DNA from: Candidatus Staskawiczbacteria bacterium
GTDB taxonomy: Bacteria > Patescibacteriota > Minisyncoccia > Minisyncoccales > Staskawiczbacteraceae
DNA length: 64,000 bases
Direction of reading: 5' to 3'
Assembly (NCBI GenBank): GCA_041661545.1
Contig: JBAZUH010000001.1
Span: 211,877-275,876, forward strand
A program made the translations under genes and the position numbers. Each line of letters begins with the position of its first letter. The stretch's first letter is position 1. The notes beneath the pieces are model-generated. The model was not told where the DNA came from. It worked only from the letters and a program-made list of their open reading frames with translations, and did no database searches. This document shows, piece after piece, positions 5,043 through 63,129 of this stretch.

Positions 5043-5240
5043 ATGAAAACAACATATACCCAAAGAACGGTTAAGCTTAGTAACAGGCACCGGGGGTCCA
5101 AATATGCGCCCAAATGGTTTATCAGGAAGCTGAAGAGGCTTAAAGAAAAGGGCTGGGTGCAAATCGCTCACCGCTCGGGACGTCTTAAGAATTTCGTCTA
5201 CGTAGTTCTTCAAAGACCAAAATGTCGTAGAACTGGTTGA
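5043..5240 (+). CDS. hypothetical small basic protein (cassette 1)
   Basis: 65-aa ORF in a GC-rich segment. KLKRLKEKGW resembles RKRLEELEKLGW of the next ORF, suggesting paralogy and a possible winged-helix fold. TGA stop. Confidence 0.45.
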   Translation: MKTTYTQRTVKLSNRHRGSKYAPKWFIRKLKRLKEKGWVQIAHRSGRLKNFVYVVLQRPKCRRTG

Positions 5241-10774: not shown

Positions 10775-10882
10775 TGTAGGAGAGCTACCTACTCTCGCGT
10801 TGCCACTACCATCGGCCTTGGAAGATTTCACTTCTGAGTTCGAAATGGGATCAGGTGGAGCACTTCCAGTATAGCTCCCTTA
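10775..10882 (-). rRNA. rrf: 5S rRNA
   Basis: The reverse complement contains CCCATTTCGAACTCAGAAGTGAAA and a GCCGATGGTAGTG core. The terminal helix is GTAAGGGAGC/GCTCTCCTAC. Confidence 0.9.
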
Positions 10883-10969
10883 CATTATTCACGATTTTTA
10901 CAAAATACCTAAAATCTGTATCTATTTAAACTTACGCTTTTTGTGAATCTTCGTATACTCAAATGCTAA

Positions 10970-14016
<3,047 letters not shown>

Positions 14017-16971: not shown

Positions 16972-17015
16972 AATATTTAATAGATTATAGCATCCCAGCG
17001 AATTCCGCGCCACTA

Positions 17016-17044
17016 TTGACAAGCCTTTTCTAATATGATATAAT
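17016..17044 (+). promoter_or_regulatory. promoter of cassette 4a
   Basis: TTGACA, 17 nt, TATAAT with an aTGa extended -10. This is a near-consensus promoter. Confidence 0.6.
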
Positions 17045-17212
17045 ATATCTAGAGTATGAAGCCAAGTACTCTTGCAAGATAAAAGGATTGTTTCGTGTCT
17101 TTGCGGGCACATCGCCTTTGCGGGCGAATAAACAATCTGGGTACAGAGCCCTATCTTGTACTTGAACGGCACATTGACACAACGACAACCGCCCCAATGG
17201 GGCACCAAACAA

Positions 17213-17962
17213 ATGACAAAGATAGTGACTGCAGCGTCTCCCCAGAGGGAGCAACTGACGGACAGCCAAGCCAATAGTCTCGCCCTCGGAGTCATCGGAT
17301 ATCACTTCACCACGGCGCTAATCGCCTGGCTGAAAAATCCGAAAATCGCTGACTTCCGCGACGACGCGGAGTCCTGTTTCTTGAAAGTCGAGAAACGGGC
17401 AAAGGCATGGGGCTGGTTGGCCTTCTGGGTCGGCCTCACCATCGGGTTCTTAGGCATCGCAGTATGCGAAGGCATCACCCGTGGTTTTGTCGAAGCCTTC
17501 TTCCACGGATGGTTGATGCAGGCGTCGGCGATAATCGGCGTGCTAACGCTGATTATCGCCTTCTTCTACGGATTTGGCTACGAGCTCGGCTCGAATCGTC
17601 GGCCGGGTGACACAACCCGAATGGTAGCCAAGATGTGGAAACCTTGGCGGAAGAAAATCGTTTCCTCGGGGGTACTTTCGGACTTCGCCTCTACGCTCAA
17701 ATGGAGGTACAAGGATGCCGAAACCGGATCTATTCTCCTGAGGCAGATCGCGAGTTACTCCTTCGGTGGCAGCGAGCTGGAGATAGTTCTCAAATCGACC
17801 CTCGCCAACCTTGCTGACGAAGCCGTCAAAAACTTCCAGGACGAGGTGCTTGATGGCAGCAAACGTGGCCAGCAACGTCACCGTCAACAGTTCGGCCAGA
17901 TTGACAAGATCGGGCAAGAGCTCGGTTTTGAAAAACTAGACTGGAAACGGCTCGACTCCTAA
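17213..17962 (+). CDS. membrane protein (cassette 4a)
   Basis: The ORF read from ATG 17213 begins MTKIVTAASPQ. It has 3-4 hydrophobic helices and is very GC-rich. Confidence 0.55.
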   Translation: MTKIVTAASPQREQLTDSQANSLALGVIGYHFTTALIAWLKNPKIADFRDDAESCFLKVEKRAKAWGWLAFWVGLTIGFLGIAVCEGITRGFVEAFFHGWLMQASAIIGVLTLIIAFFYGFGYELGSNRRPGDTTRMVAKMWKPWRKKIVSSGVLSDFASTLKWRYKDAETGSILLRQIASYSFGGSELEIVLKSTLANLADEAVKNFQDEVLDGSKRGQQRHRQQFGQIDKIGQELGFEKLDWKRLDS

Positions 17963-18050
17963 CCGAGCAGATAGGGTGCATATCATCTGATACCACCGAG
18001 TAATATCGGGCAGTGATTTGCATCAAAACAAAGAAACTAACAACAACGAA

Positions 18051-18085
18051 AGCGCGTGTGGCTTGGTAAACCCACGCGCTCTTTT
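18051..18085 (+). terminator. terminator of cassette 4a
   Basis: agcgcgtgtgg...cccacgcgct stem followed by cttttaat. Confidence 0.5.
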
Positions 18086-18108
18086 AATACATTTAGCATT
18101 ATTCACAG

Positions 18109-18137
18109 TTGACACAAAGCTTTTTATATAGTATAAA
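18109..18137 (+). promoter_or_regulatory. promoter of cassette 4b
   Basis: TTGACA, 17 nt, TATAAA. Confidence 0.5.
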
Positions 18138-18195
18138 GATTATGGAACATTTACAAGATAAATGAGTTTGGCGAGTGCCAACACGAAACTTCCAG

Positions 18196-18549
18196 ATGTT
18201 CCAAACGTCCAAACAACATATAAACGCCATGTGCAAAATCGCCATCCAGGAACTCCCCCTCGTTTCCCACAGCCCGCGGTGTGCCTGTGGGAAAACGGCC
18301 ATCCAAAAGGCCGTAATCAAAAAACCCACGTTTGTAGTTTCCGTAAACTGCTGCGGTGACGTGGCCTGCGTGCAAGCGGCCCAAAAAAGCGTCGGTGAGA
18401 AGCATCGAGCCCGCCTCGAGGACATCCAACGAGTTCGTCAAGCCAAAGCGGCCCAAAAAGCCGCCGCGCGCGCGGCGAAGAAGGAGAGGTCGTTGCGCGG
18501 CTCCAAAGAGACCTTCGTCGGTAGGGACTTCGATCCCCTGAAGGTCTAA
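18196..18549 (+). CDS. hypothetical Cys-containing protein with a Lys/Ala-rich tail (cassette 4b); frame uncertain
   Basis: This is the longest plus-strand frame between the promoter and terminator. Several overlapping ORFs exist on both strands in this GC-rich stretch. Confidence 0.35.
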   Translation: MFQTSKQHINAMCKIAIQELPLVSHSPRCACGKTAIQKAVIKKPTFVVSVNCCGDVACVQAAQKSVGEKHRARLEDIQRVRQAKAAQKAAARAAKKERSLRGSKETFVGRDFDPLKV

Positions 18550-18575
18550 CCGCCCTCGCCACACATTTCCCCAAA

Positions 18576-18608
18576 GCTCGCATCCCCCCAGATGCGAGCA
18601 ATTTTTTT
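18576..18608 (+). terminator. terminator of cassette 4b
   Basis: gctcgcatc/gatgcgagc stem followed by a T7 run. Confidence 0.7.
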
Positions 18609-18616
18609 GCATAGGC

Positions 18617-18680
18617 ATCCTCCCAAATAAAAGTTTCCGACACGAAAACTTTTACCATTTGGGGGGATATTTTGAGGGAT
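18617..18680 (-). repeat. E element copy 3 (structured repeat with an 11-nt insertion)
   Basis: The reverse complement reads atccctcaaaa[tatccccccaa]atggtaaaagttttcgtgtcggaaacttttatttgggaggat. It lies 8 nt after the terminator T-run. Confidence 0.75.
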
Positions 18681-18687
18681 GCATAAA

Positions 18688-18990
18688 CTAGCTAACACCT
18701 AATATCTGCCTAATCCTATCTGCCTCCTCGTCAATTATGGGGCCAAAATATTCACCATTATGGGCATGAGAGTTGCCACCATAAACTGGTGCTTTTTGAT
18801 CTAAGTGCAAACTAAAAGTAAAATCTGTTCCCGCTTGGCGGGTGTAAGCATGAAACCGTGGAAAACTATTGCCACTTAATTTTCTAACCAAATTATACTC
18901 ACCATTTGGCTTTGTATCTATAATAACGTAGCCAAGTTTTCTGGCTACATTAGAAATACTTTCTTTTACATTTTTTATAATAAAATCCAT
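18688..18990 (-). CDS. hypothetical protein
   Basis: AT-rich ORF with start taken at MDFIIKNVKE. No family recognised. Confidence 0.55.
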   Translation of the reverse strand: MDFIIKNVKESISNVARKLGYVIIDTKPNGEYNLVRKLSGNSFPRFHAYTRQAGTDFTFSLHLDQKAPVYGGNSHAHNGEYFGPIIDEEADRIRQILGVS

Positions 18991-19015
18991 AAATATAATG
19001 GGGCAATAATTATTA

Positions 19016-19120
19016 AGCGAGGCAGTCAATTTTCAGCGTATTTCAGGACACAAAGTGCCTGACCAAGCCATTTAGACGCGAAGCGTATCAATGGCGTTAG
19101 CAGAAAATTGACTGCCGAGC
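19016..19120 (+). repeat. R element copy 1 (105-bp structured repeat with 14-bp terminal inverted repeats)
   Basis: ggcagtcaattttc...gaaaattgactgcc termini. It differs at 4 positions from the copy at 57024-57128. Confidence 0.85.
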
Positions 19121-19126
19121 GAAAAA

Positions 19127-20197
19127 CTAACCGTGCTTAAATTCTATAACGTCGCCATCTTTAACAATATATTCTTTTCCTTCGGTTCTTAATTTTCCCA
19201 TTTCTCTAGCTTTTGCATAACCGCCTAATTCCATTAAATCTTTCCAAAAAACAACTTCTGCTTTTACAAATTTATTTTCAAAATCTGTGTGAATGGCCGC
19301 GCCAGCTGTTGGAGCTGTATCGCCTTTTTTTATTGTCCAAGCTCTTGTTTCGTCTTCACCTGTTGTTAAAAAGGTTATTAAATTTAAAAGCTCATATGAC
19401 TTTTTTACTAAAACATCTGTTTCCGAGTCCACTGGCAAGCCAAGTTCTATTCTTTCTTCGCGTGATAGCCCTTCGGCCTCAAATTCTGTGGCTACATCCA
19501 AAATAATGCAATTATTTTGTCCTGAGGCACCTCGAAGGGAATTCACAATTTCCTCACCTACTTCGTCGTCTTTGCCATTTAATAAATATAGACGAGGTTT
19601 GAAAGTTAAAAGTTGAAAGTTTTTCAAGATCTCCGCTTCGTCTTCTGCAAATGACATGTCGCACAATACTTTTTCTTGACTTAAAAATTCTTTGGCTTTT
19701 GTTAAAACTGCCATTTCTTTAACAGCCTCTTTTTTATTCTGCCTAACTTCACCAGCCAAACTATCTATTCTTTTATTTATAGTATCTAAATCTTTTAAAA
19801 TTAGTTCTACATCTAAAATTTCTTTTTCTTCTAATGGGTCAACTTCTTGCTGAGTGTTTACAATATCTGGGTTTTTAAAAGCGCGCAAAACATATAAAAC
19901 TGCATCGGTTTCTCTAATGTTTGCTAAAAATTTATTTCCTAAACCTTCGCCCTCGCTAGCACCTTTAACTAACCCAGCAATATCTACAAAATCAACTGTG
20001 GCGTAAATTTTCTTTTTAGATTTCGATAATTCTGCTAGTGCATCAACTCTCTGGTCGGGAACCAAAACAACCCCAACATTGGGGTCTATTGTAGCAAAAG
20101 GATAATTGGCAATCAAAACTGGCTTTTTAGTTAATGTTTTAAATAATGTTGATTTGCCTACATTTGGCAAACCCACAATTCCTATACTTAATGACAT
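19127..20197 (-). CDS. ychF: ribosome-binding ATPase YchF
   Basis: 356-aa ORF with the [10 protein letters not shown]-loop and a TGS-like C-terminus. Confidence 0.9.
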
Positions 20198-22443: not shown

Positions 22444-22511
22444 TTCAATTATTTTTTATTATTTTAATTATTTTATTATATAACAACTAAAAAACTATCT
22501 CAATAATATAC

Positions 22512-22558
22512 AAAAAAAGGCCACGTTTCGCTAGGCTGTTGCTTTTGCGAAACGTGGC
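22512..22558 (-). terminator. terminator of cassette 5
   Basis: 12-bp perfect stem gccacgtttcgc/gcgaaacgtggc followed by a T7 run on the minus strand. Confidence 0.7.
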
Positions 22559-22583
22559 ATGATAGGCTCACTGAGCCGTGTTC

Positions 22584-23507
22584 TTACTTGCCCTTCTTCG
22601 GCGGACGGGGCTTCTTCCGTCGCGCGGTGAGCTTGGTGGCGGGCGCAGGCGCTTCGGGTGAAGCGGGCGCTTCGGCTACCAACTGCCATTCAGGACTCAG
22701 TCCATCCGGAGTGGGAACTTCAGCGACCGGAGGCTGCTCAGCCGACTCGGAAGTCGGCGGAGCGGGTTGCTCGGGAACAGGCTCGGTGGGCGGCTGAGCG
22801 GTGGGCTCGGGCGTAGGTGCTTGCGGTTCCCAACGAGAGGCTTCGGGAAAAGGCCCTGGGAAAAGACCTCCGCTTCCAAACAGAACTTCGAATGGGTCGG
22901 AACGGCGGGGTTCCCCAAAGAACTCCGGACGGAGACGACCACGCGCATCCATAAATCCGGGCGGATATGGGGATGGCGGTGGACCATACATGTCGCCAAA
23001 AAGGCTGTCGAGGCCCGCCAAAGCGCCGAGATTCATGGCGCCAAGGTCTATGACCGTGATCTCCGGCTCAATGGCCACGATGTGCCACCACTTCTTCACG
23101 GCCAGTGTCCGTTTCTCAAAACTTGCCATGGCGCACTGCTGGGGGAAGACTTCCTTGATCCCCCTCCACAAGAGACGGTTAAGGATAGTCAATTCCTCTT
23201 GCACGATGTCTAGTTCGGCGACCGATCGGCTCATGCGCTTTTTGATGTCGGCACCATTGGCCAGAACCATGGAAAATTCGTCCATCAAACGCATCTGGCA
23301 ATAGCCCCCTATGCTTTCCACTTCTCGCATGCAGATCGCTCTAAGCGTTGCCACCGCCTTCAAATGGTTCGGCAAAATGCCGATGAAGGTATCACCTTCC
23401 TGGATAAGCCCTTGGGGCTCTTCATACTCGGCGGCAGGCATGGTCTCAATCCTGTCAAGCAGAGCTCGCAGAAATCTCGTCGTTACGCTTCCCTTTGGTT
23501 GTTTCAT
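22584..23507 (-). CDS. hypothetical protein with a Pro/Ala-rich C-terminal tail (cassette 5)
   Basis: Start taken at MKQPKGS (ATG). One sample stretch is 45 of 60 nt GC. The C-terminus is low complexity (PEPTAQPPTEPVPEQPAPP) and ends in KKPRPPKKGK. Confidence 0.55.
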   Translation of the reverse strand: MKQPKGSVTTRFLRALLDRIETMPAAEYEEPQGLIQEGDTFIGILPNHLKAVATLRAICMREVESIGGYCQMRLMDEFSMVLANGADIKKRMSRSVAELDIVQEELTILNRLLWRGIKEVFPQQCAMASFEKRTLAVKKWWHIVAIEPEITVIDLGAMNLGALAGLDSLFGDMYGPPPSPYPPGFMDARGRLRPEFFGEPRRSDPFEVLFGSGGLFPGPFPEASRWEPQAPTPEPTAQPPTEPVPEQPAPPTSESAEQPPVAEVPTPDGLSPEWQLVAEAPASPEAPAPATKLTARRKKPRPPKKGK

Positions 23508-24547: not shown

Positions 24548-24556
24548 ATATTTTTT

Positions 24557-24609
24557 CAGGTTGCCCCTGCCTACGCCAAGGCTACGGCGAGGCAAGCATG
24601 GGCAACCTG
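24557..24609 (+). repeat. intercistronic GC-rich hairpin repeat, copy 1
   Basis: caggttgccc...gggcaacctg 10-bp outer stem enclosing tgcctacgcc-aaggctac-ggcgaggca. Confidence 0.85.
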
Positions 24610-24614
24610 ACACG

Positions 24615-24866
24615 TTAATTATTTTTTTTGATCCACCAATTTTTAAATAAAGAAATTGAAAATGTTGAAATAACAAATCCCAAGGTTGGCACAATGGCAT
24701 TTGCAAAAGGTTTTTCCAGTTTTGCAAAATAGAAAAAAATTACAATAACAATATAGGTTAAAACCGCAACCAAAATTTTCCGCGCCCAGCTTGTTTCCCA
24801 CGCCTTGTCTTGCTCAACTTTTTTGTTTCTTTCTTTTATTAAATTAATTTCTTTCTCAAAATCCAT
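24615..24866 (-). CDS. small two-TM membrane protein
   Basis: 83-aa ORF. Confidence 0.55.
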   Translation of the reverse strand: MDFEKEINLIKERNKKVEQDKAWETSWARKILVAVLTYIVIVIFFYFAKLEKPFANAIVPTLGFVISTFSISLFKNWWIKKNN

Positions 24867-24876
24867 AATTTTATTT

Positions 24877-24935
24877 CCTCAGGTTGCCCCTGCCTACGCC
24901 AAGGCTACGGCGAGGCAAGCATGGGCAACCTGAGG
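24877..24935 (+). repeat. intercistronic GC-rich hairpin repeat, copy 2
   Basis: cctcaggttgcccc...gggcaacctgagg. The interior is identical to copy 1. Confidence 0.85.
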
Positions 24936-24940
24936 TGTTT

Positions 24941-25237
24941 TTAGTTTTTAAATTGAATTACATTAAGACCTTTTTCTATTATTTCTTTTTCTTGGCCAAA
25001 ACTGTCAATTTTAAAATTTAAAACAAAATCAACCTTTTTCTCAATTTTTCTGCCAGTATATTGTTTTGTTTTAGGATTCCACTCTTCTAAAATTAACGTG
25101 TCGCCTTTTTGCACATCAAAATCTGCCAAGCGCAACTCAAACCTCTTTTCTCCTGATATGACCTTTTCAAAATACTCCGGCCAACATTTCCTTCGCCAGG
25201 CCGTAGCCTTGTGCGTAGGCTGGTTCTTTATTTCCAT
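24941..25237 (-). CDS. ASCH/DUF3850-like domain protein
   Basis: Start taken at MEIKNQ. CWPEYFEKVISGEKRFELRLADFDVQKGDTLILEEW is ASCH-like. Confidence 0.6.
   Translation of the reverse strand: MEIKNQPTHKATAWRRKCWPEYFEKVISGEKRFELRLADFDVQKGDTLILEEWNPKTKQYTGRKIEKKVDFVLNFKIDSFGQEKEIIEKGLNVIQFKN
25194..25223 (+). repeat. GC-rich repeat inside the ASCH CDS (encodes KATAW)
   Basis: cgccaggccgtagccttgtgcgtaggctgg. The core gccgtagcc-ttg-gcgtaggc is shared with the intercistronic repeats. Confidence 0.55.
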
Positions 25238-25246
25238 ATTATTTTT

Positions 25247-25299
25247 CAGGTTGCCCCCGCCTACGCCAAGGCTACGGCGAGGCAAGCATGGGCAACCTG
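25247..25299 (+). repeat. intercistronic GC-rich hairpin repeat, copy 3
   Basis: caggttgcccccgcctacgccaaggctacggcgaggcaagcatgggcaacctg. Confidence 0.85.
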
Positions 25300-25326
25300 G
25301 CGAATTTTTATATATTGTTGAATTTT

Positions 25327-27171: not shown

Positions 27172-28752
27172 ATGCAAACATTAACAAAAAAACAAAAACA
27201 AGTTTTCGATTTTATTAATGAATACATATTAGAGAATGGTATCTCCCCTACTTTTGAAGAAATCCGAAAAACACTTGGACTAAAAGCCATATCTACTATA
27301 CATGAACACGTGGGCACGCTTAAAAAGAAGGGCTATCTTGCAAAAGATATAAATTCAATCCGAAACATAACCCCCAAAAAATCCATACGAATAATTATAG
27401 ATATTCCCATTGTGGGGAAAATTGCAGCTGGCAAACCAATAGAGGCCATAGAAGATAACTTGCAAGAAATTATATCTATATCAAATCCAACTATAAAAAG
27501 CTCGAAAGATTATTATGCACTCCGCGTAACTGGCGACAGCATGATTGGCGAAGGCATATTTGATGGCGATATAGTAATAATCAAAAAACAATCTGTAGCT
27601 GAAAATGGGCAAACCGTGGTAGCAATCATAGACGACAACGAGGCCACTCTTAAAAAACTTTATCGAGAAAAAAATAGATTCCGCTTAGAGCCAAGGAATC
27701 CAAGCATGCTCCCTTTTTTTAGAAAAGAAGTTGAAGTCAGGGGGGTAGTTGTTCAAGTAATTAGCAATATTCCTAATAAACCAAAAGAAAAAATATCAAA
27801 AAAGACTAAACACGGATTTAAAACTATTGATCTTTTTGCTGGAATTGGCGGAATACGTATTGGTTTTGAGAGGGCTGGCTTTGAAACAGTTTTTGCAAAT
27901 GACTTTGACGAACCATGCAAAATAACTTACGATTTTAATTTTCCTAGAGTAAAATTAGTGGCTGAAGATATAAGAAAAATCGGCTTAGATGATATTCCTA
28001 AATTTGATTTTTTATTAGGAGGCTTTCCTTGCCAGGCATTTTCTATCGCTGGATATAGAAAAGGATTCAATGACGAAAAAGGACGTGGAAATTTATTTTT
28101 TGATATAGCAAAAATTATTGAAGATAAAAAACCGGAAGGATTTCTTTTAGAAAATGTTAAAAATTTAAAAAGCCACGACGAAGGAAAAACTTTTAAAATA
28201 ATCGAAGAAACTTTAAAAAATTTAGGCTATTATCTAAATGTAAAAATTTTAAACAGCATGGAATATGGCAATATTCCACAAAATAGAGAGAGAATTTATA
28301 TAGTGGGCTTTAAAAATAAAAACTACGCAGATAATTTTAATTTTCCAGAACCAAGAAAACTTACTAAAAAAATTATCGATCTACTCGAGGACAATGTTGT
28401 TGAAAAATATTATTATAACGGCAAACCCCTGTTTGAGAAGCTAAAAAATTTCATAAAAGAGGAAGGAAAAGTTTATCAATGGCGCAGACAATATGTCCGC
28501 GAAAATAAAAGCGGAGTTTGCCCAACATTAACCGCAAATATGGGAATGGGCGGACACAATGTGCCAATTATAAAAGATAAAAAAGGTATAAGAAAACTTA
28601 CCCCTTTAGAGTGCTTTAGAATACAGGGTTTTCCAGAAAACTTTAAACTTCCGCAAATATCAGATTCTTCTCTATACAAGCAAGCTGGAAATTCTGTGAG
28701 TGTTCCAGTTATAGAAGCCGTTGCCACTCAAATGATGAAGGCAATGTCATAA
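27172..28752 (+). CDS. LexA-like repressor (wHTH + S24 autopeptidase) fused to a DNA (cytosine-5) methyltransferase
   Basis: 526-aa single ORF. The N-terminus is LexA-like (LTKKQKQVFDFI...GISPTFEEI). KIAAGKPIEA is the Ala-Gly cleavage site, and GDSM (Ser) and TLKKL (Lys) are the catalytic residues. These are followed by MTase motifs DLFAGIGG (I), GGFPCQAFS (IV), ENVKNL (VI), QNRERIYIVG (VIII) and GNSVSVPV (X). Confidence 0.85.
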   Translation: MQTLTKKQKQVFDFINEYILENGISPTFEEIRKTLGLKAISTIHEHVGTLKKKGYLAKDINSIRNITPKKSIRIIIDIPIVGKIAAGKPIEAIEDNLQEIISISNPTIKSSKDYYALRVTGDSMIGEGIFDGDIVIIKKQSVAENGQTVVAIIDDNEATLKKLYREKNRFRLEPRNPSMLPFFRKEVEVRGVVVQVISNIPNKPKEKISKKTKHGFKTIDLFAGIGGIRIGFERAGFETVFANDFDEPCKITYDFNFPRVKLVAEDIRKIGLDDIPKFDFLLGGFPCQAFSIAGYRKGFNDEKGRGNLFFDIAKIIEDKKPEGFLLENVKNLKSHDEGKTFKIIEETLKNLGYYLNVKILNSMEYGNIPQNRERIYIVGFKNKNYADNFNFPEPRKLTKKIIDLLEDNVVEKYYYNGKPLFEKLKNFIKEEGKVYQWRRQYVRENKSGVCPTLTANMGMGGHNVPIIKDKKGIRKLTPLECFRIQGFPENFKLPQISDSSLYKQAGNSVSVPVIEAVATQMMKAMS

Positions 28753-29699: not shown

Positions 29700-29732
29700 T
29701 CCCGCCCCAGCGGAATCCCCGCTGGGGCGGGA
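29700..29732. repeat. GC-rich perfect hairpin (tcccgccccagcgg-aatc-cccgctggggcggga)
   Basis: Related to the in-CDS elements at 49043 and 57784 (cccgcc...gcgggatcccgc...ggcggg). Confidence 0.7.
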
Positions 29733-31573: not shown

Positions 31574-31647
31574 ATTATTATATGTTAATTATATTATATA
31601 TTTTTACTCTACGCCTAAAAATTAAATTTGGCAAGTAATGTCTATTT

Positions 31648-31700
31648 ATCCCTCAAAAATGGTAGCACTTTTCGTGTCGAAAAGCGCTATTTTTGGGGAT
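31648..31700 (+). repeat. E element copy 1 (53 nt)
   Basis: atccctcaaaaatggtagcacttttcgtgtcgaaaagcgctatttttggggat, 8 nt from terminator D1. Confidence 0.8.
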
Positions 31701-31708
31701 TTTCGTTT

Positions 31709-31746
31709 AAAAAAAGAGCCCAAGGTTGCAGGTGCAACAAGGGGCA
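31709..31746 (-). terminator. terminator D1 (38-bp unit identical to D2)
   Basis: The minus strand reads tgccccttgttgcacctgcaaccttgggctcttttttt, starting 8 nt after the rSAM stop. Confidence 0.75.
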
Positions 31747-33509: not shown

Positions 33510-33547
33510 AAAAAAAGAGCCCAAGGTTGCAGGTGCAACAAGGGGCA
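33510..33547 (-). terminator. terminator D2 (identical to D1)
   Basis: Same 38-bp sequence as 31709-31746, starting 8 nt after the stop of the small TM gene. Confidence 0.75.
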
Positions 33548-36067: not shown

Positions 36068-36912
36068 ATTATCCTCTAGAAACCTAGAGTTGATGTTCCC
36101 ACCGTACGAGCGGATTTCCCGCATACGGCGAGCTCTAATGCATTTTTTGTTTAATAAGATATAATCTTTTTAAACCAGAACTTGTCAAATGTTCTTTTTT
36201 CTTAATCCTTTTCATTATTTCGCAAAAAATTTTAAAATCGTATGCTTTTGATTTTAAATTTAATTTATTGCGCTTAAAAAATGGAATAATAGTTTCTTCT
36301 AAATCATTTCTATTTGTTACTTCGTATCGGTAACAATTTTGATGGTTTAGCCGTGTATCTTTTTGAAAATACACGTTTCCGCATTCAAAATATTTTTTCA
36401 AATCATATAAAATATCTTTATCTTTTTCTATGAGTTTGATATAAAATCTTGGTTCGGCTTTAACTCTTCTTTCATTTTCTAATTTTTTTGCCGGATTTTT
36501 AATATAAACAGTGAAGCTTCCTTCACCATCTATTAATCCAACAATATAATTAGGATTAAGTGACTTGTTAGAGAGATTCCTTGGCATAATATACTATATT
36601 ATGTTTAATATGAATCAGCTGACTTCTGACGCAGCGTTAGTAGTTTCATTATACTACGTCAGATCTCCCCGGGTCAATATATTTTCTTTTCCTGACATCC
36701 TTAGCTAGGCGTTGTGGTATGTTCTTCACTATGCTCACCGCCGATCATAGCTCGAACGCCTATTTTTATGCTAGGGCTACCATTTGTCGCAAAACCCTCT
36801 GGCGTCTACCTCGCGGTAGTTCGCCTGTTTGTTGACTACTCTCTGTTGAGTCTTAACAACAGAGGAAAAGATTTTAACTTTTTAGAAAATATACCTGCCG
36901 GGCGCGTTTATT
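36068..36912 (-). mobile_element. intron/intervening sequence in 16S rRNA at about E. coli position 1399/1400
   Basis: Exon 1 ends ...GAATACGTTCCTGAGTCTTGTACTCAC and exon 2 resumes CGCCCGTCAAGCC. The insertion splits the universal 1392-1406 block and carries a homing-endonuclease ORF. Confidence 0.85.
36135..36587 (-). CDS. LAGLIDADG homing endonuclease (single-motif type)
   Basis: 150-aa ORF inside the 16S intron. YIVGLIDGEGSF is the LAGLIDADG motif. Confidence 0.85.
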   Translation of the reverse strand: MPRNLSNKSLNPNYIVGLIDGEGSFTVYIKNPAKKLENERRVKAEPRFYIKLIEKDKDILYDLKKYFECGNVYFQKDTRLNHQNCYRYEVTNRNDLEETIIPFFKRNKLNLKSKAYDFKIFCEIMKRIKKKEHLTSSGLKRLYLIKQKMH

Positions 36913-37381
36913 GTGAGTACAAGACTCAGGAACGTATTCATCGCCACGTAGCTGATTGGCGATTACTAGCGATTCCAGCTTCATGAGGGCGAGTTTCAGC
37001 CCTCAATCCGAACTGAGATAGGTTTTGGTGCGATTAATCTCCGCCTTACGGCATCGAAGCGCATTGTACCTACCATTGTACCACGTGTGCGGCCCAGGTC
37101 ATCAAAGGGCCATGCTGATTTGGCGTCATCCTCGCCTTCCTCCCAATTATCTCGGGCAGTCCCCCGTGACATTTAAAACACAGGGCAAGGGTTGCGTTCG
37201 TTACCCGAATTAACGGTACGTCTCAAGACACGAACTGACGACAACCATGCAGCACCTGTCTGCACGTCTTGCGAGGGCTCTACTTTCATAAAGCTTTCGT
37301 GCAGATTTCCAGACCTGGTAAGGTTCTTCGCTTGTTGTCGAATTAAGCCACATGGTCCACCGCTTGTGTGAGTCCCCGTCT

Positions 37382-37413
<32 letters not shown>

Positions 37414-38530
37414 TCCCAGGCGGGATACTTAACGCGTTAGCTTCGCCACATGAAGGGTCGACACTTCATATAGCCAGTATCCATCGTTTACAGCGTGGAC
37501 TACAAGGGTATCTAATCCTTTTTGCTCCCCACGCTTTCGTTCCTCAGTGTCAGGATTGTCCTAGTGAACTGCCTTCGCTTTTGGTGTTCCCGACAATATC
37601 AACGGATTTCACCCCTACTCTGTCGGTTCCGTTCACCCCTAACATCCTCTAGTTTAGCAGTATTGAAAGCATCTCAAAGGTTAAGCCGATGAGTTTTAAC
37701 TTTCAACTTACTATACCACCTACGAACCCTTTACGCCCAATAAATCCGGGTAACGCTCGAGGATTCTGTATTACCGCTCCTGCTGGCACAGAATTAGGAT
37801 CCCCTTATTCATATGGTACTGTCTGGCTTGCGCCTTCCTCCCATATAAAAGAACTTTACACCCCTAAGGGCTTCATCATTCACGTAACGTCGCTCCGTCA
37901 GGCTTTCGCCCATTGCGGAAGATTCTCGACTGCAGCCTCCCGTAGGAGTATGGCCCGTGTCGCAGTGCCATTCTTGGGGGTCGCGCTCTCACGCCCCCTA
38001 CCCGTCATAGACTTGGTGAGCTATTACCTCGCCAACAATCTGATAGGCCGTAGGCCATTCCCAAATCGGCTTGCGCCTTTACCCTTGCGGGATTATGGAG
38101 AATTACCCCGTCTTTCGACGAGCTGTGCTCCAATTTGGGGTATGTACCCACGTGTTACTAAGCCGTTCGCCGGTTGCTATTGCTAGCCCCCTTGACTTGC
38201 ATGCCGGTATCCACGTTACCAGCGTTCACCCTGAGCTAGGATCAAACTCTCAAATAAAACATTTGATGTTTGAATTTCTAGTTATAGAATAAACTACTAA
38301 TGTGTGTCCCGCCTTCACTTAAGTGAAGGCGTGGACTAATTCGAAACAACTTTAAAAAACTAATTTTTGATTAAACTTTAATTTAATCAAACCTTTTGGT
38401 TGTTTACTATTTACTTATTTGCTGATTTTAAAAATGGTTTTAAAATCATGCTCATTATTTTCCTTTCCAAAACTTTTTTTTCAAAAATTGTTGGTAGGTT
38501 TATTTTTCAATTTTCTTTCCGTTCTGAATT

Positions 38531-48262: not shown

Positions 48263-50674
48263 TTATTTTTTGTTTTCTAATTTTTTTTCGGTGTCACTAA
48301 TAGCAATTTTGGTTTTTAAAACTGAGTCGGGGTTTAAAGAAATTGACTCAATCCCCTGCTCAACTAAAAATTGGGCAAAGTCTGAAAAATCGCTTGGGCC
48401 CTGCCCACAAATACCAATATACTTATTGTTATTCTTGCATACTTTTACAGCTTCTTCAATAAGCTCTTTTACTGCTTCGTTTTTTTCGTTTCCAATTGCT
48501 GACAATCCCCCATTGTCTCTATCTAGTCCAAGCGTTAGTTGAGTTAAATCATTAGAACCAATTGAAAATCCATCAAAAATTTCTAAAAACTTTTCAGCTA
48601 AAATTACATTTGCTGGAATTTCACACATTACGTAAACATTGCCTAAAATACCGTTTTCTCTAATAATTTGCATCACTTTTTTGCCCTCGTCTAACGTTCT
48701 ACAAAATGGAACCATGGGTATTACATTATCTAAGCCAAATTCTTCTTGCACTTTTTTCATTGCACGGCATTCTAAAACAAAGGCATCTTTAAATTTTTTA
48801 TCATAATACCTAGAGGCCCCTCTGAACCCAATCATGGGGTTTTCTTCTTCTGGCTCATAATTTTCTCCGCCCAATAAAGACCTATATTCATTTGTTTTAA
48901 AATCAGAGAACCTTACAATTACTGGCTTAGGGTAAAAAGCTGCACCAATTGTTCCTATACCTTCGGCTAATTTGTCTATATAAAACTGAACTTTGTCACT
49001 ATACCCCAAAGTTATAGCATCTATTTTTTTCTTTAGTGTTTTGTCCCGCCCCAAGCGGGATCCCGCTATGGCGGGATAGTTTATTAAAGCGTTTGGATGA
49101 ACTTTTATAGAGTTTATAATTATAAACTCTTCACGGGCCAAACCAACACCATCATTTGGTATAAAACTTAAATTAAATGCATTTGAAGGCTCACCCACGT
49201 TCATTAAAATTTTAACATTGTTGTGGGGAATATTAGAAATATCTGTTTTTTGAATTTCAAATGGAATTATGCCTTCATAGACTTTTCCATTTTCTCCACC
49301 CGAACAGTCTATTGTTATTTCTTGCCCCGATTTTATTATTTTTGTTCCATTATTTGTTCCTACAATTACCGGCACCCCCAACTCTCTGCCAACAATAGCA
49401 GCGTGACAGGTTCTACCACCAGAATCTGTAACAATTGCCGAAGCTAATTTCATTGCCGGCACCCAATCGGGGTCGGTGGCTGTAGTTACTAAAACTTCTC
49501 CTTTTTTAAATTTTCCTATATCTTTTGCACTTAAAATTTTGTTTGCCTTGCCTTGCCCAATCTTACTGCCCACGCTCATACCCTGAGCAACAATTTTTAA
49601 TTTTACATTTCCAATTTTCAATACATAATCTTCTAAAACTTTTAAATTCTTTCTACTTTGCACTGTTTCGGGCCGTGCCTGCACAATATATAATTTTCCA
49701 TCTCTGCCGTCTTTTGCCCACTCCATGTCCATTGATTTTTTATAATGGTCTTCTATGATTATTGACCACTTTGCTAAACTCAAAATTTCTTCGTTATTTA
49801 AAACAAAACTCTCTCTTTCTTTTTTAGTTGTTGCAATATTCTTACAAGGAAGCTTAGGGTTTGTTGTATAAATCATTTTTATCAGTTTGCTTCCAATTCT
49901 TTTTTCTACTATTGGCTTAAACCCTTTTTTAAGCGTAGTTTCAAAAACATAATATTGGTCTGGCTCAACAGCTCCCTGCACAACGTTTTCACCCAAACCA
50001 TAACTAGCATTAATTAAAACAACATCTCCAAACCCAGATTCTGTATCACAAGAAAACATAACTCCCGATGCCCCTAAATCTGCTCTTACCATTTTTTGTA
50101 TTCCAGCTGATAACCCCACTTTTGTATGAGCAAAACCCATTTCTTGCCTATAAACAATGGCCCTGCTTGTAAACAATGATGCAAAACACTTTTTTACAGC
50201 TAACAAAACATTTTCTGCGCCTACAATATTTAAATAAGTTTCTTGTTGACCAGCAAAACTAGCTCCTGGCAAATCTTCTGCAGTTGCCGAAGATCTTACC
50301 GCCACATCTGTATCTTCTGGTCCATATTTACCCGACAATCTCTTATAAGCCAAAATTACATCATCTGCAAATTCTTGTGGTAATTGCGAATTTAAAATTG
50401 ACTCTCTAACTATTTTTCCTTTTTCAGCAAGTTGTAGCAAATTATGAATATCTAAATCTTTTAAAGTGTCTTCAATTTTTTTATCTAATCCAGTTGTTTC
50501 TAAAAAATAAAAATATGCCTCTGCAGTTGTGGCAAAACCAAAAGGCACATTTACTCCTTTAGGAGAAACCGACTTAATCATTTCTCCTAATGAAGCATTT
50601 TTGCCTCCAACCAGAGGAATATCTTTTATGGTTATCTCATCAAACCAAAGTATATTTTTTTTAGGTTTTTCCAT
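48263..50674 (-). CDS. ppsA: phosphoenolpyruvate synthase
   Basis: 803-aa ORF with GGRTCHAAIVGRELG (phosphohistidine) and a C-terminal PEP-utilising TIM domain. It carries an in-frame GC repeat at 49043-49077. Confidence 0.9.
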   Translation of the reverse strand: MEKPKKNILWFDEITIKDIPLVGGKNASLGEMIKSVSPKGVNVPFGFATTAEAYFYFLETTGLDKKIEDTLKDLDIHNLLQLAEKGKIVRESILNSQLPQEFADDVILAYKRLSGKYGPEDTDVAVRSSATAEDLPGASFAGQQETYLNIVGAENVLLAVKKCFASLFTSRAIVYRQEMGFAHTKVGLSAGIQKMVRADLGASGVMFSCDTESGFGDVVLINASYGLGENVVQGAVEPDQYYVFETTLKKGFKPIVEKRIGSKLIKMIYTTNPKLPCKNIATTKKERESFVLNNEEILSLAKWSIIIEDHYKKSMDMEWAKDGRDGKLYIVQARPETVQSRKNLKVLEDYVLKIGNVKLKIVAQGMSVGSKIGQGKANKILSAKDIGKFKKGEVLVTTATDPDWVPAMKLASAIVTDSGGRTCHAAIVGRELGVPVIVGTNNGTKIIKSGQEITIDCSGGENGKVYEGIIPFEIQKTDISNIPHNNVKILMNVGEPSNAFNLSFIPNDGVGLAREEFIIINSIKVHPNALINYPAIAGSRLGRDKTLKKKIDAITLGYSDKVQFYIDKLAEGIGTIGAAFYPKPVIVRFSDFKTNEYRSLLGGENYEPEEENPMIGFRGASRYYDKKFKDAFVLECRAMKKVQEEFGLDNVIPMVPFCRTLDEGKKVMQIIRENGILGNVYVMCEIPANVILAEKFLEIFDGFSIGSNDLTQLTLGLDRDNGGLSAIGNEKNEAVKELIEEAVKVCKNNNKYIGICGQGPSDFSDFAQFLVEQGIESISLNPDSVLKTKIAISDTEKKLENKK
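49043..49077 (+). repeat. GC-rich double-hairpin repeat inside ppsA
   Basis: gtcccgccccaagcgggatcccgctatggcgggat, encoding part of PAIAGSRLGRD. Confidence 0.7.
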
Positions 50675-56340: not shown

Positions 56341-57006
56341 TTATACAAGTTTTTTATATTTTCCATCTTCAAAATCATATTTAATTAATGCTCCAAAAGG
56401 TAATTCTAGCTCAGCAATTTTATCGTCGGGTATATTTTCCAAATATTTTACTATTGCCCTTAAACTATTATGACTGGCCACCACTAAAACGTTTTTACCT
56501 GCTTTCAAATCTTTCTCAATATTTTTTTTATAAAATGGCACCGCTCTTTTAAAGGTATTTTCCATGGTTTCTCCTCCTGGAATAACAATTTTATATGATC
56601 GCCTCCAGTTATGAACCAATTCGCCTCCAAATTTTTCTACAGTTTCATTTTTATTTAAACCCTGCAAATTACCGTAATATCTCTCATTTAATTTTTCTGA
56701 AGTATAAACAGGAACATAATTACCGCCTCCTTCAAAATTCCCCCATTTTTGCATTTTCCCGCCATCTAAATGAATAAATATTGGATATTTATCACCCAAA
56801 TTTCTAAGAATCTTAATAACGGTTTGCACATTTCTAATCAATGCCGAAGAATATACAACATCAAAATTCTCTCCAACTATCTTTGATGCAACGTCTTTGG
56901 CTTGATCTGCACCCTCTTTAGATAACGGATTATCAACCCAACCAGCAAACCTATTTTCTAAGTTCCATTGTGATTTTAAATGTCTTAATAAATATAATTT
57001 AGCCAT
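56341..57006 (-). CDS. gpmA: 2,3-bisphosphoglycerate-dependent phosphoglycerate mutase family
   Basis: 221-aa ORF with LLRHLKSQWNLENRFAGWVDNPLSKEG (RHG-type histidine phosphatase) and ASHNSLRA. Confidence 0.8.
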   Translation of the reverse strand: MAKLYLLRHLKSQWNLENRFAGWVDNPLSKEGADQAKDVASKIVGENFDVVYSSALIRNVQTVIKILRNLGDKYPIFIHLDGGKMQKWGNFEGGGNYVPVYTSEKLNERYYGNLQGLNKNETVEKFGGELVHNWRRSYKIVIPGGETMENTFKRAVPFYKKNIEKDLKAGKNVLVVASHNSLRAIVKYLENIPDDKIAELELPFGALIKYDFEDGKYKKLV

Positions 57007-57023
57007 AAGTTTATATAATTTGT

Positions 57024-57128
57024 AGCGAGGCAGTTAATTTTCAGCGTATTTCAGGACACGAAGTGCCTGACTAAGCCGTTTAGACGCGAAGCGTATCAAT
57101 GGCGTTAGCAGAAAATTGACTGCCGAGC
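57024..57128 (+). repeat. R element copy 2
   Basis: About 96% identical to 19016-19120 and in the same orientation. It lies between eno and gpmA. Confidence 0.85.
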
Positions 57129-57152
57129 AAAAAAAATTTATTTGCCAAGCGT

Positions 57153-58400
57153 TTATTTAAATTCTTTTTCTATTTCTATTACTCTTTGATATTTTACCAT
57201 TCTTTCTGGTTTTGCAGGAGAGCCGGCTTTTAAAAAATCTGCGCCTGCACCCACTGCTAAATCGGCAATAAAATTATCCATTGTTTCGCCACTGCGATGC
57301 GAAACAATAACTTTCCAGCCAAATGATTTTGTCATATTTATTGCGTCTATTGTTTCAGATACACTTCCAATTTGATTTAATTTTATTAAAATTGCATTGC
57401 AAGCTAATTGGCTATGAGCATCCTTAATTGTTTTTATGTTTGTTGTTGTTAAATCGTCTCCAACAATTGTAACTTTACCACCAAATTCTTTAGTAATTTC
57501 TTTAAATCCTTCCCAATCTTCTTGCGAAAATGGATCTTCAATAGAAATAATAGGAAATTCATTTACTAAGTTTTTATAAAATTCTAACATTTGACTTCTT
57601 GTATATTCTTTGCCTTCAACCATATACTTACCATTGTTATAAAACTCCGAAGCAGCACAATCTAGCGCAAATTTTATATCATTTTGCCCTTCACATGCCC
57701 CTTTTATAAAAAATAATGCTCTTTCAGCTGAAGAAATTGGTGGAGCAAAACCGCCCTCATCCCCCAGTTGTAGATAATCTTCGCTCCCGCCGTTAGCGGG
57801 ATCCCGCTGTGGCGGGACAAAATTTTTAGTAATTGCATCTTTTAAATTGTTAAAAACTTTATTGCACACTACCAAATTTTCTTGCATTGTTTTCTTTTGG
57901 GGCACAATCATAAATTCTTGAATATCTAAATCATTTTTAGCATGCGCTCCCCCATTTAAAATATTAAACATTGGCAAAGGAGAAAATAATTTATTTTCAT
58001 TCCCAGATAAATCTGCAATATATTCATACAAAGAAACCTTTTTAGAACCAGCGCCAGCTCTACAAACAGCTAGTGAAACTCCTAAAATTGCATTGGCGCC
58101 AAGCTTAGATTTATTTTCTGTCCCATCTAAATCAATCATTGTCCTATCAATTTCTTTTTGATTTGACACATCCATTCCCTTTAATTTTGGTGCAATAATT
58201 TCATTTACATTATTTATTACAGTATTTACGCCTCTTCCATCGGCATCTCTTAATTCTAAAGCTTCTCTAACACCAGTTGATGCACCGCTTGGAACTGAAG
58301 CAACAAAACTGCCCTTTTCAGTTTCAAGCTCAACTTCAATTGTAGGCTTACCGCGAGAATCTTTTATTTCCCTGGCAATTATATCCTTTATTTTACTCAT
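57153..58400 (-). CDS. eno: enolase
   Basis: 415-aa ORF with GDEGGFAP, SHRSGET and IKLNQIGS motifs. It carries an in-frame GC repeat at 57784-57818. Confidence 0.95.
   Translation of the reverse strand: MSKIKDIIAREIKDSRGKPTIEVELETEKGSFVASVPSGASTGVREALELRDADGRGVNTVINNVNEIIAPKLKGMDVSNQKEIDRTMIDLDGTENKSKLGANAILGVSLAVCRAGAGSKKVSLYEYIADLSGNENKLFSPLPMFNILNGGAHAKNDLDIQEFMIVPQKKTMQENLVVCNKVFNNLKDAITKNFVPPQRDPANGGSEDYLQLGDEGGFAPPISSAERALFFIKGACEGQNDIKFALDCAASEFYNNGKYMVEGKEYTRSQMLEFYKNLVNEFPIISIEDPFSQEDWEGFKEITKEFGGKVTIVGDDLTTTNIKTIKDAHSQLACNAILIKLNQIGSVSETIDAINMTKSFGWKVIVSHRSGETMDNFIADLAVGAGADFLKAGSPAKPERMVKYQRVIEIEKEFK
57784..57818 (+). repeat. GC-rich double-hairpin repeat inside eno
   Basis: ctcccgccgttagcgggatcccgctgtggcgggac, encoding PPQRDPANGGSE just upstream of GDEGGFAP. 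Confidence 0.75.
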
Positions 58401-62990: not shown

Positions 62991-63040
62991 TATATTATAT
63001 GTTAACCGCTTACAAAATAAAATCAAGTCTTACCATATGC

Positions 63041-63093
63041 ATCCCTCAAAAATGGTAGCAATTTGTGTGTCACAAATCGCTATTTTTGGGGAT
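63041..63093 (+). repeat. E element copy 2 (53 nt)
   Basis: atccctcaaaaatggtagcaatttgtgtgtcacaaatcgctatttttggggat, 8 nt from the cassette-9 terminator. Confidence 0.8.
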
Positions 63094-63101
63094 TTTCATT
63101 T

Positions 63102-63129
63102 AAAAAAAAGCTACGATGTCACACGTAGC
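63102..63129 (-). terminator. terminator of cassette 9
   Basis: gctacg/cgtagc stem followed by a T8 run on the minus strand. Confidence 0.65.

Follow-up and report, generated by a model that had tools for sequence, protein, structure and literature searches.

Structured palindromic repeats of uniform polarity between genes and within mnmA in CPR bacteria

Introduction

Several families of short palindromic repeats have been described in bacteria, and they are compared here with a 105-nt element that occurs twice (R1 and R2) in a 64,000-nt stretch of contig JBAZUH010000001.1 from Candidatus Staskawiczbacteria bacterium, a member of the Candidate Phyla Radiation (CPR) or Patescibacteria. That whole stretch is called the window below, and its + strand is the strand as read. 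The genomes of CPR/Patescibacteria are among the smallest and most streamlined of bacteria, and they are usually thought to be poor in repetitive or selfish DNA. An earlier note on the window had described the element as present twice, which proved too small a count: pattern scans and two covariance models gave about 25 distinct relatives in CPR/Patescibacteria contigs, and the family is widespread. On balance we regard R1 and R2 as probable members of a family, so far uncatalogued, of palindromic dispersed repeats in CPR/Patescibacteria that are about 90-150 nt long, non-autonomous and propagated strand-specifically.

The best-supported parallels are with the Rickettsia palindromic elements (RPEs) in behaviour and with the REPINs in the logic of the hairpin. 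RPEs, like the present family, are palindromic dispersed repeats of 100-150 nt in a reduced genome, and their presence or absence varies between related genomes (PMC10969869). They too are found between genes and in frame within housekeeping genes, to which they add a peptide, and no transposase is known to be associated with them (PMC10969869; Ogata et al. 2000 as summarised there). In-frame insertion of a palindrome is their hallmark (PMC10969869); relatives of types B/C of our element share it, within mnmA, whereas the window copies, which are of type A, do not. The CPR host, the branched architecture, a conserved foot motif and a strictly uniform polarity set the present element apart from RPEs, and the likeness is one of behaviour, homology of sequence not being expected between such unrelated hosts.

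REPINs are built from repetitive extragenic palindromic (REP) sequences, with which tyrosine transposases (RAYTs) are associated. They resemble our element in being extragenic, non-autonomous, hairpin-forming and about 100 nt long, with compensatory changes that keep the hairpin (PMC3116915). Further points of likeness are a proposed single-strand intermediate, short conserved motifs flanking the stem, and populations that outlast single copies (PMC3116915). In contrast to REPINs, the present element is without GTAG, its foot reads CGCUC/UCGCU, and it has a structured three-way apex in place of two inverted REPs and a spacer; copies also occur in coding sequence, and no RAYT was found among the 10 window open reading frames (ORFs) tested.

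The Correia (CREE/nemis), ERIC and RUP elements are likewise 100-200 nt long with terminal inverted repeats, lie in co-transcribed spacers and are sometimes nested (PMC10969869), and they can be substrates of RNase III or RNase E (PMC10969869). They occur in both orientations, several of them with a TA duplication and a known insertion sequence (IS) partner, whereas the polarity here is fixed and neither duplication nor partner was found. Elements derived from IS200/IS605 have the strand-specific, hairpin-dependent recognition that we propose for ours; their orientation bias is likewise strong, and they make no target-site duplication, of which none could be defined here. Palindrome-associated elements of that derivation have a subterminal hairpin at each end, and their active strand is expected on the lagging-strand template. 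The present element differs in having one terminal stem, and its better-folding strand is not the predicted (gene-sense) one. Within the known palindromic repeats it is unusual in its branched conserved apex, its strict polarity and its foot motif.

Sequence and fold of the two copies

R1 (19016-19120) and R2 (57024-57128) lie in one orientation and, as previously reported, differ at exactly 4 positions: 19027 (C in R1, T in R2), 19052 (A/G), 19064 (C/T) and 19070 (A/G). The similarity continues to 19126/57134, ie over 111 nt at 95% identity, with a fifth mismatch at 19121. A 31-mer from R1/R2 matched the window at these two sites alone, the shuffle expectation being 0, and neither covariance model found a further copy in the window.

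The minimum free energy (MFE) fold of R1 consists of a 14-bp terminal inverted repeat (19021-19034/19103-19116) and two hairpins (19043-19062 and 19067-19095), and it bears out the inverted repeats and internal hairpins of the earlier note. For RNA of the + strand the MFE was -48.3 kcal/mol for R1 and -45.8 kcal/mol for R2 (z = -7.5 and -5.9, respectively), and no shuffled sequence equalled either value. The corresponding figures for the - strand were -47.0 and -36.0 kcal/mol. With DNA parameters R1 gave z of about -7 on both strands, a fold as exceptional as that of the RNA.

The two strands share a common architecture, in which a 2-bp closing helix and a 2 x 2 internal loop (the foot) are followed by the 14-bp stem P1. 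Above P1 in R1 and R2 there is a 2-bp junction helix and then the hairpins P2 and P3, making a three-way junction. The arms of P1 in R1 are GGCAGTCAATTTTC (19021-19034) and GAAAATTGACTGCC (19103-19116), which pair in the MFE structure and show compensatory changes across the family. All 14 positions of this inverted repeat are matched in R1 and 13 of the 14 in R2, where the MFE structure pairs the arms 57029-57042 and 57111-57124 with one G-U at 57035 on the + strand (C.A on the - strand). The foot, which the earlier note overlooked, lies outside the inverted repeat (AGCGA...GAGCG). Its 5' half in R1 (GCGA on the + strand, 19017-19020) pairs with GAGC at 19117-19120 and is kept in nearly all copies. 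On the + strand it forms two G-C pairs and a tandem G.A in a CGAG/CGAG context, and on the - strand the mismatches are U.C/C.U. P2 (19043-19062) is the hairpin CAGG-A-CAC/GTG-CCTG with a 3-nt loop, of which pairs 36/55 and 38/53 covary; P3 (19067-19095) is GCCATT...AATGGC around ACGC-GAA-GCGT, and pairs 64/88 and 69/83 covary. Two of the substitutions between the copies (19027 and 19070) do convert Watson-Crick pairs to G-U on the + strand. The C-A pair that had also been claimed for that strand does not exist, as 19052 is in the loop of P2 and 19064 is in the unpaired junction.

Relatives in other genomes

Two covariance models were built, one for each of types A and B, and run on the window and on the related loci retrieved. 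A pattern for the ends of P1 was scanned over species-representative genomes, and a pattern for the junction sequences over metagenome contigs. With the type-A model R1 (19016-19121, - strand) scored 128.5 bits (E = 1e-25) and R2 (57024-57129, of the same polarity) 123.1 bits. Of the 6 matches to the P1 ends in genome contigs one was a true relative, L008, which has a compensated change in P1 and the junction sequences of R1/R2; its contig is binned as Saccharibacteria, and occurrence across phyla depends on this one label of a metagenome-assembled genome. The matches in Collinsella, Neomarinimicrobiota and Elusimicrobia were unrelated palindromes. About 18 more relatives came from the metagenome scan, and the covariance models, a search which the earlier note had proposed, recovered further copies in related CPR DNA (L013b, L031b, L031c, L022b, L082a, L082b and L089/L090). 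Two end-motif scans of viral contigs produced 45 matches, all of them chance hits in G+C-rich phage contigs without a P1 stem, and two further scans of viral contigs gave no relatives.

Type A, which includes R1, R2, L012-15, L018, L019 and L032, is about 105 nt long; copies of type B measure about 125-140 nt, and there are shorter variants besides. Several loci hold more than one copy: two in 8 kb in L013 (L013b is 3 kb from L013a), three in 14 kb in L031 and two in 13 kb in L082. Whole units are nested within the arms of another unit in L082, L015, L019 and L022, and less clearly in L032. Both window copies carry what look like remnants of such outer arms. Next to R2, ACGCTTGGCAAATAAAT on the - strand (57136-57152) is homologous to the intact 5' outer arm ACGCTCGGCAACAAAC of L082. 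A probable remnant of the 3' outer arm adjoins R1, namely TTATTGCCCC (19000-19009, - strand; family consensus TTTATTGCCTCGCT), judged against the nested units of L082 and L015.

The comparison with Rfam suggested by the earlier note produced no family. Rfam 15 gave no match at gathering score for the window, none at E <= 10 for R1 and none at E <= 1 for nine related loci; the search covers riboswitches, ribozymes and LOOT-type CPR motifs, and the element matches none of these. No description of the element was found in the literature on repeats or RNA motifs of CPR/Patescibacteria. Hammerhead, attC, K-turn, 5S-like and retron msr readings were dropped by inspection alone, the defining core sequences being absent. 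The sequences AGCGUA/UAGCAG had the appearance of an invariant junction like that of a riboswitch or ribozyme, an ascertainment bias of a search pattern that required the motif. In L013b the motif is replaced by a fully compensated helix, GGCGAA/UUCGCC.

Conservation of the structure

An 11-sequence MAFFT alignment of type A was scored over 34 pairs, and 97.9% of cells were paired, against 89.6% in shuffles and 28-41% in slid controls. Double changes were found in 10 of the 34 pairs, and none of 500 shuffles reached the covariation score. For type B, compensatory changes were seen in 22 of 41 pairs. The earlier note had named the lack of further copies and of covariation as what would count against its proposal; instead, about 25 relatives and strong covariation were found.

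The best-conserved parts are the termini, which on the gene-sense strand read 5'-CGCUCGG-CAAyAAAUUUU...AAAAUUUrUUG-CCUCGCU-3'. The foot (5'-CGCUC...UCGCU-3' on that strand) closes an A/U-rich stem of 12-15 bp, followed by a short junction helix and an apical module. The apex differs by subtype, being a three-way junction with two hairpins in type A, larger in type B and smaller in the other variants.

Two P1 pairs, both fully compensated, separate the copy at the eno/gpmA junction of L082 from R1/R2, and R2 represents the half-step of one of these. R2 and the L082 copy are 92% identical (108/118), whereas the third codon positions are 62% identical in eno and 52% in gpmA. Possible causes of this high conservation are a re-insertion into a pre-existing outer hairpin that would make the copies younger than the divergence of their hosts, homogenisation, and purifying selection. 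In REPINs, compensatory evolution and long persistence can arise under purely element-level selection (PMC3116915). Covariation alone does not imply a function as RNA, because REPINs also show compensatory changes (PMC3116915).

Genomic context and polarity

R1 lies between ychF (19127-20197, -) and the gene downstream of it in the direction of transcription, a conserved hypothetical gene of 100 amino acids without a Pfam match (18688-18990, -), whose true start is the ATG at 18990. R2 lies between eno (57153-58400, -) and a gpmA-like histidine phosphatase gene (56341-57006, -). YchF and Eno of the window are each 100% identical to a protein from a 738-kb Ca. Staskawiczbacteria contig. The distances given in the earlier note were correct: R1 is 6 nt from the ychF stop and R2 24 nt from the eno stop, and the next ATG is at 25 and 17 nt, respectively. 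On R1 the family motif 5'-CGCUCGG...CCUCGCU reads along the - strand, ie in the sense direction of both ychF and the next gene. The same holds throughout the family, the neighbouring genes of all scorable copies being on the strand that reads 5'-CGCUCGG (the upstream gene of L021 is cut off, and the divergent L016 is ambiguous). The notion that this polarity reflects a stop-free sense strand was rejected, since 22 of 75 frames were open in the sense and 19 of 75 in the antisense direction.

The element begins within 24 nt of the stop codon, at times overlapping it, and its end is mostly 0-28 nt from the following start codon. The copies of L014, between convergent genes, and of L021, before a terminator, are at the ends of operons. 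The downstream genes are unrelated (groEL twice, fusA, rpsP, trmD twice, tgt, sodA, atpC twice, gpmA and tRNAs), which excludes a pathway-specific riboswitch. In L008 (1171-1318, +) the element stands between a gene resembling that of the CCA-adding enzyme and two tRNA genes, not before a protein-coding gene. One junction can hold different subtypes: at groES/groEL the copy of L013 is of type A and that of L026 of type B, and upstream of trmD the copy of L022 is a short variant and that of L025 is of type B. A search of the + strand gave no sigma-70-like promoter facing the element; neither strand has a terminator-like site, and the stem is not followed by a U-tract.

Gain and loss of copies

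The spacer between ychF and the next gene is 136 nt in the window, but 12 nt in L033-35, where YchF is 87% identical and the downstream gene is the same, and 21 nt in L036. In L001 (YchF 88% identical) the same spacer is filled by an unrelated insert of 102 nt. This insert (5054-5155) has a hairpin of its own (TTAGACCC...GGGTCTAA) and a CTCGCCTCGCTCGC tail, was missed by both covariance models, and may be another repeat family at the ychF site. The eno/gpmA spacer is 4 nt in L085/86 (Eno 83% identical) and 1 nt in L087 (74%), whereas in L082-84 (83-86%) the site of R2 is filled, by a type-A copy that has outer arms.

The short empty spacers of close relatives show that the ychF and eno operons can do without the element, and that it has been gained or lost recently. 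R1 is probably the younger copy, because its site is empty or otherwise filled in every relative sampled, while that of R2 is also occupied elsewhere. Target-site duplications had been suggested as a further check, and none could be defined at the pairs of empty and filled sites. CTCG is repeated at both ends, as part of the conserved foot of all copies, and is indistinguishable from a duplication.

Copies within mnmA

The type-B copies L011 (148 bits) and L089/90 (108 bits) and the short variant L031c lie within mnmA, immediately after the conserved ATGHYAR. They are translated in frame without stops and add 25-46 residues. Close MnmA homologues without the interruption are 335-354 amino acids long (ARIKDGKLF at this point), and the interrupted proteins 362-430, with inserts such as ...SFASARRQRRLAQSSAKFRSAEPCILPAGYASDLLPR...; L088 is an uninterrupted mnmA allele at the DNA level. 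The comparison of these alleles suggests that the insertion point is a permissive loop. The host codons TAC GCT CGN mimic the 5' ACGCUCG motif of the element, which hints at a target preference. In type A, the type of the window copies, each of the three sense frames contains stops, and the copies are intergenic only.

Differences between the strands

Several features distinguish the + strand, which is antisense to the genes. The tandem G.A in its CGAG/CGAG context stands on that strand at the foot of P1, of P3 and of the outer arms, where the sense strand has U.C/C.U. The + strand loops are GNA triloops closed by C-G (GCGAAGC), and its unpaired residues are 40% A and 31% G, whereas those of the sense strand are 71% pyrimidine. 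There are 42 G-U against 28 A.C on the + strand overall; for the type A alignment the figures are 10 and 4. Of 23 copies, 18 have the lower MFE on the + strand, the mean difference being about 4 kcal/mol; such strand signals are traits of the family and should not be counted as 23 separate observations. DNA parameters make the two strands almost equal, and the short variants L031c, L028b and L082b show a reversed G-U bias. By GC skew and gene direction the sense strand is the template of the lagging strand, so a model based on IS200/IS605 predicts that the sense strand is the active one.

Mobilisation and alternative explanations

The family, its conserved fold, the fixed polarity, the insertion polymorphism and the in-frame copies in mnmA are observed; how the element is mobilised, and what it might do to mRNA, we infer as follows. 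An activity acting in trans would recognise the folded single strand, by its foot and P1, and the unit would be copied strand-specifically, as it is by HUH/Y1 enzymes for REPINs and IS200/IS605. Such copying would explain why the fold and sequence are conserved while single copies are dispensable. Each copy would be co-transcribed in its operon, placing a structure of -36 to -48 kcal/mol between cistrons, and this could alter RNase III processing or the stability of mRNA 3' ends, effects shown for REP and Correia elements. The earlier note had offered three readings, a mobile element resembling a miniature inverted-repeat transposable element (MITE), an intercistronic RNA element and a small RNA gene. 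The first has fared best, in view of the empty sites, the nested copies, and the in-frame mnmA copies with an uninterrupted allele.

A number of results weigh against a strand-specifically propagated repeat. The better-folding strand is the one antisense to the genes, where a model based on the replication fork's single-stranded DNA predicts the sense strand. No mobilising enzyme or transposase, RAYTs included, was found among the 10 atypical window ORFs tested, and the 64-kb window holds just two copies. A target-site duplication was not definable at three comparisons of empty and filled sites, and a single fixed polarity would not be usual in classical cut-and-paste MITEs. Nor would one expect a decaying selfish copy to be as conserved as the 92% seen between R2 and L082, unless it were young or homogenised.

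It is possible, though we think it rather unlikely, that the element is instead a portable cis-acting RNA module of use to the host, as a shield against 3' exonucleases, a processing site for RNase III or another enzyme, or an insulator or enhancer of translation. The polarity is fixed relative to the flanking genes, the element abuts stop and start codons, and in many cases the start of the next gene follows at 0-28 nt with no evident Shine-Dalgarno sequence. Some junctions hold the element in more than one lineage, viz groES/groEL (L013a, L026), the sites before trmD (L022b, L025) and atpC (L018, L019), and eno/gpmA (the window, L082), and the 92% conservation of the element compares with 52-62% at adjacent third codon positions, far above neutral sites. 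P1 and the junction helix together make a duplex of about 20 bp, and Correia and REP elements provide precedents for RNase III processing and stabilisation (PMC10969869). Against such a role, close relatives with the same gene order have spacers of 1-21 nt without the element, and some relatives of the element lie inside coding sequence, where the role makes little sense. A sense foot of tandem U.C/C.U mismatches and unpaired residues that are 71% pyrimidine would also be atypical of a selected RNA fold, and on the sense strand A.C is as common as G.U or commoner. The intercistronic RNA element of the earlier note thus gains from the polarity and the conservation and loses by the empty sites.

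We would also entertain, tentatively, a new class of structured nucleic acid that has a specific activity, is conserved in Parcubacteria and perhaps in Saccharibacteria, and is not merely selfish DNA. It has some claim because the antisense fold bears the hallmarks of a selected RNA and the conservation exceeds that of neighbouring synonymous sites. Within this class the element might be a mobile unit of RNA or single-stranded DNA whose selected fold is antisense to the host genes, or else an intercistronic RNA module that is portable and serves CPR bacteria genome-wide.

A multi-copy small RNA gene or mobile RNA on the + strand, antisense to the operons, would make the + strand RNA the selected fold. 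Much of the strand asymmetry described above would be expected of it: tandem sheared G.A in the optimal CGAG/CGAG context, GNA triloops, purine-rich unpaired residues, the excess of G-U (42 to 28, and 10 to 4 in type A) and the lower MFE in 18 of 23 copies. In L082, moreover, a C-G pair is replaced by U-A in a compensatory change, to which R2 looks like the G-U intermediate. We nevertheless consider it unlikely, as the + strand has no promoter-like site and no terminator, and the upstream flanks are the AT-rich starts of the next gene; the strand signals are again family traits, DNA parameters bring the strands close to equality, and L031c, L028b and L082b have the opposite G-U bias. The small RNA gene of the earlier note thus lacks a promoter and a terminator, and what speaks for it is the seemingly better folding of the + strand.

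A classical MITE, cut and pasted by a DDE transposase through the 14-bp terminal inverted repeats, with ends GGCARTNAATTTT and a short target-site duplication, seems to us improbable. Its terminal inverted repeats, small size and insertion polymorphism are as expected, as is the non-coding nature of type A. The strictly uniform polarity, the asymmetric conserved foot motifs outside the inverted repeats and the internal hairpins kept by compensatory change are not; no target-site duplication was identified, and the window has no IS with matching ends. A riboswitch or leader of the downstream gene, or an intrinsic terminator or attenuator, would suit a three-way junction 0-28 nt before start codons but is close to refuted, given unrelated downstream genes, no Rfam match, no U-tract after the stem, an "invariant" junction that is an artefact (L013b), copies in mnmA and empty sites in relatives.

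As a strand-specifically propagated repeat, the element would have consequences beyond this locus. Coding palindromes like RPEs are not peculiar to Rickettsia and look like a recurrent outcome of reductive evolution, and here their spread reaches the reading frame of an essential tRNA-modification enzyme (MnmA). The element points to a strand-specific mobilising activity. For population genomics of uncultured CPR bacteria at the level of strains, filled and empty alleles offer a natural marker. In annotation, the family accounts for unusually long spacers and for length polymorphisms of 25-60 amino acids in otherwise conserved proteins, and the two covariance models could seed an Rfam or Dfam entry.

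Other features of the window and related loci

The window contains further repeats. A G+C-rich palindrome of 33 nt and of the perfect type (TCCCGCC...GGCGGGA) occurs three times, at 57785-57817 within eno, at 49044-49076 within the ORF 48263-50674 (-), and at 29700-29732 between genes. The eno copy forms an in-frame insert of 11 amino acids (VPPQRDPANGG), absent from an 83%-identical orthologue, and this palindrome makes a second RPE-like coding family in the genome. A G+C-rich hairpin repeat of about 60 nt is also present three times (24549-24626, 24872-24949 and 25239-25316), at a spacing of 323-367 nt; the copies are 83-88% identical to the reference copy and contain TTGCCTCGCC on the - strand, which resembles the foot of R1 and R2. 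A 73-nt hairpin repeat is found at 31643-31715 and 63036-63108 (88% identical), and a 38-nt repeat at 31709-31746 and 33510-33547 (100% identical). An inverted repeat of 82 nt, 5848-5929/9294-9375, was considered as the ends of an IS parent and rejected, since it brackets mrdA-mreD-mreC, with no transposase and with different ends; its arms are 87% complementary, and it is a structured G+C-rich intergenic repeat in both orientations.

Two islands, 17000-18700 and 22500-23500, have a G+C content of 51-61%, compared to about 32% in the remaining window. The first holds only short overlapping ORFs and the second one long ORF (324 amino acids). Neither that ORF nor the longest ORFs of the first island matched Pfam above threshold, and the islands gave no Rfam match at E <= 1. 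At the position of the first island, between the gene downstream of ychF and a pseudouridine synthase gene, relatives carry a gene of 79 amino acids or other genes. This island may be foreign DNA or a large non-coding RNA.

In L025, about 1.1 kb upstream of the type-B copy, there is a sub-threshold match to a type III hammerhead (1374-1428, +; 34.9 bits against a gathering score of 48.5, E = 3e-4). In the product of 27172-28749, one of the few + strand genes of the window, a LexA DNA-binding domain is fused to an S24 peptidase and a C-5 cytosine DNA methyltransferase. The 16S gene and the 23S-5S pair (10776-14009, -) are unlinked, about 23 kb apart, and the full Rfam model of 16S rRNA matched over only about 1397 nt (36861-38257, -).

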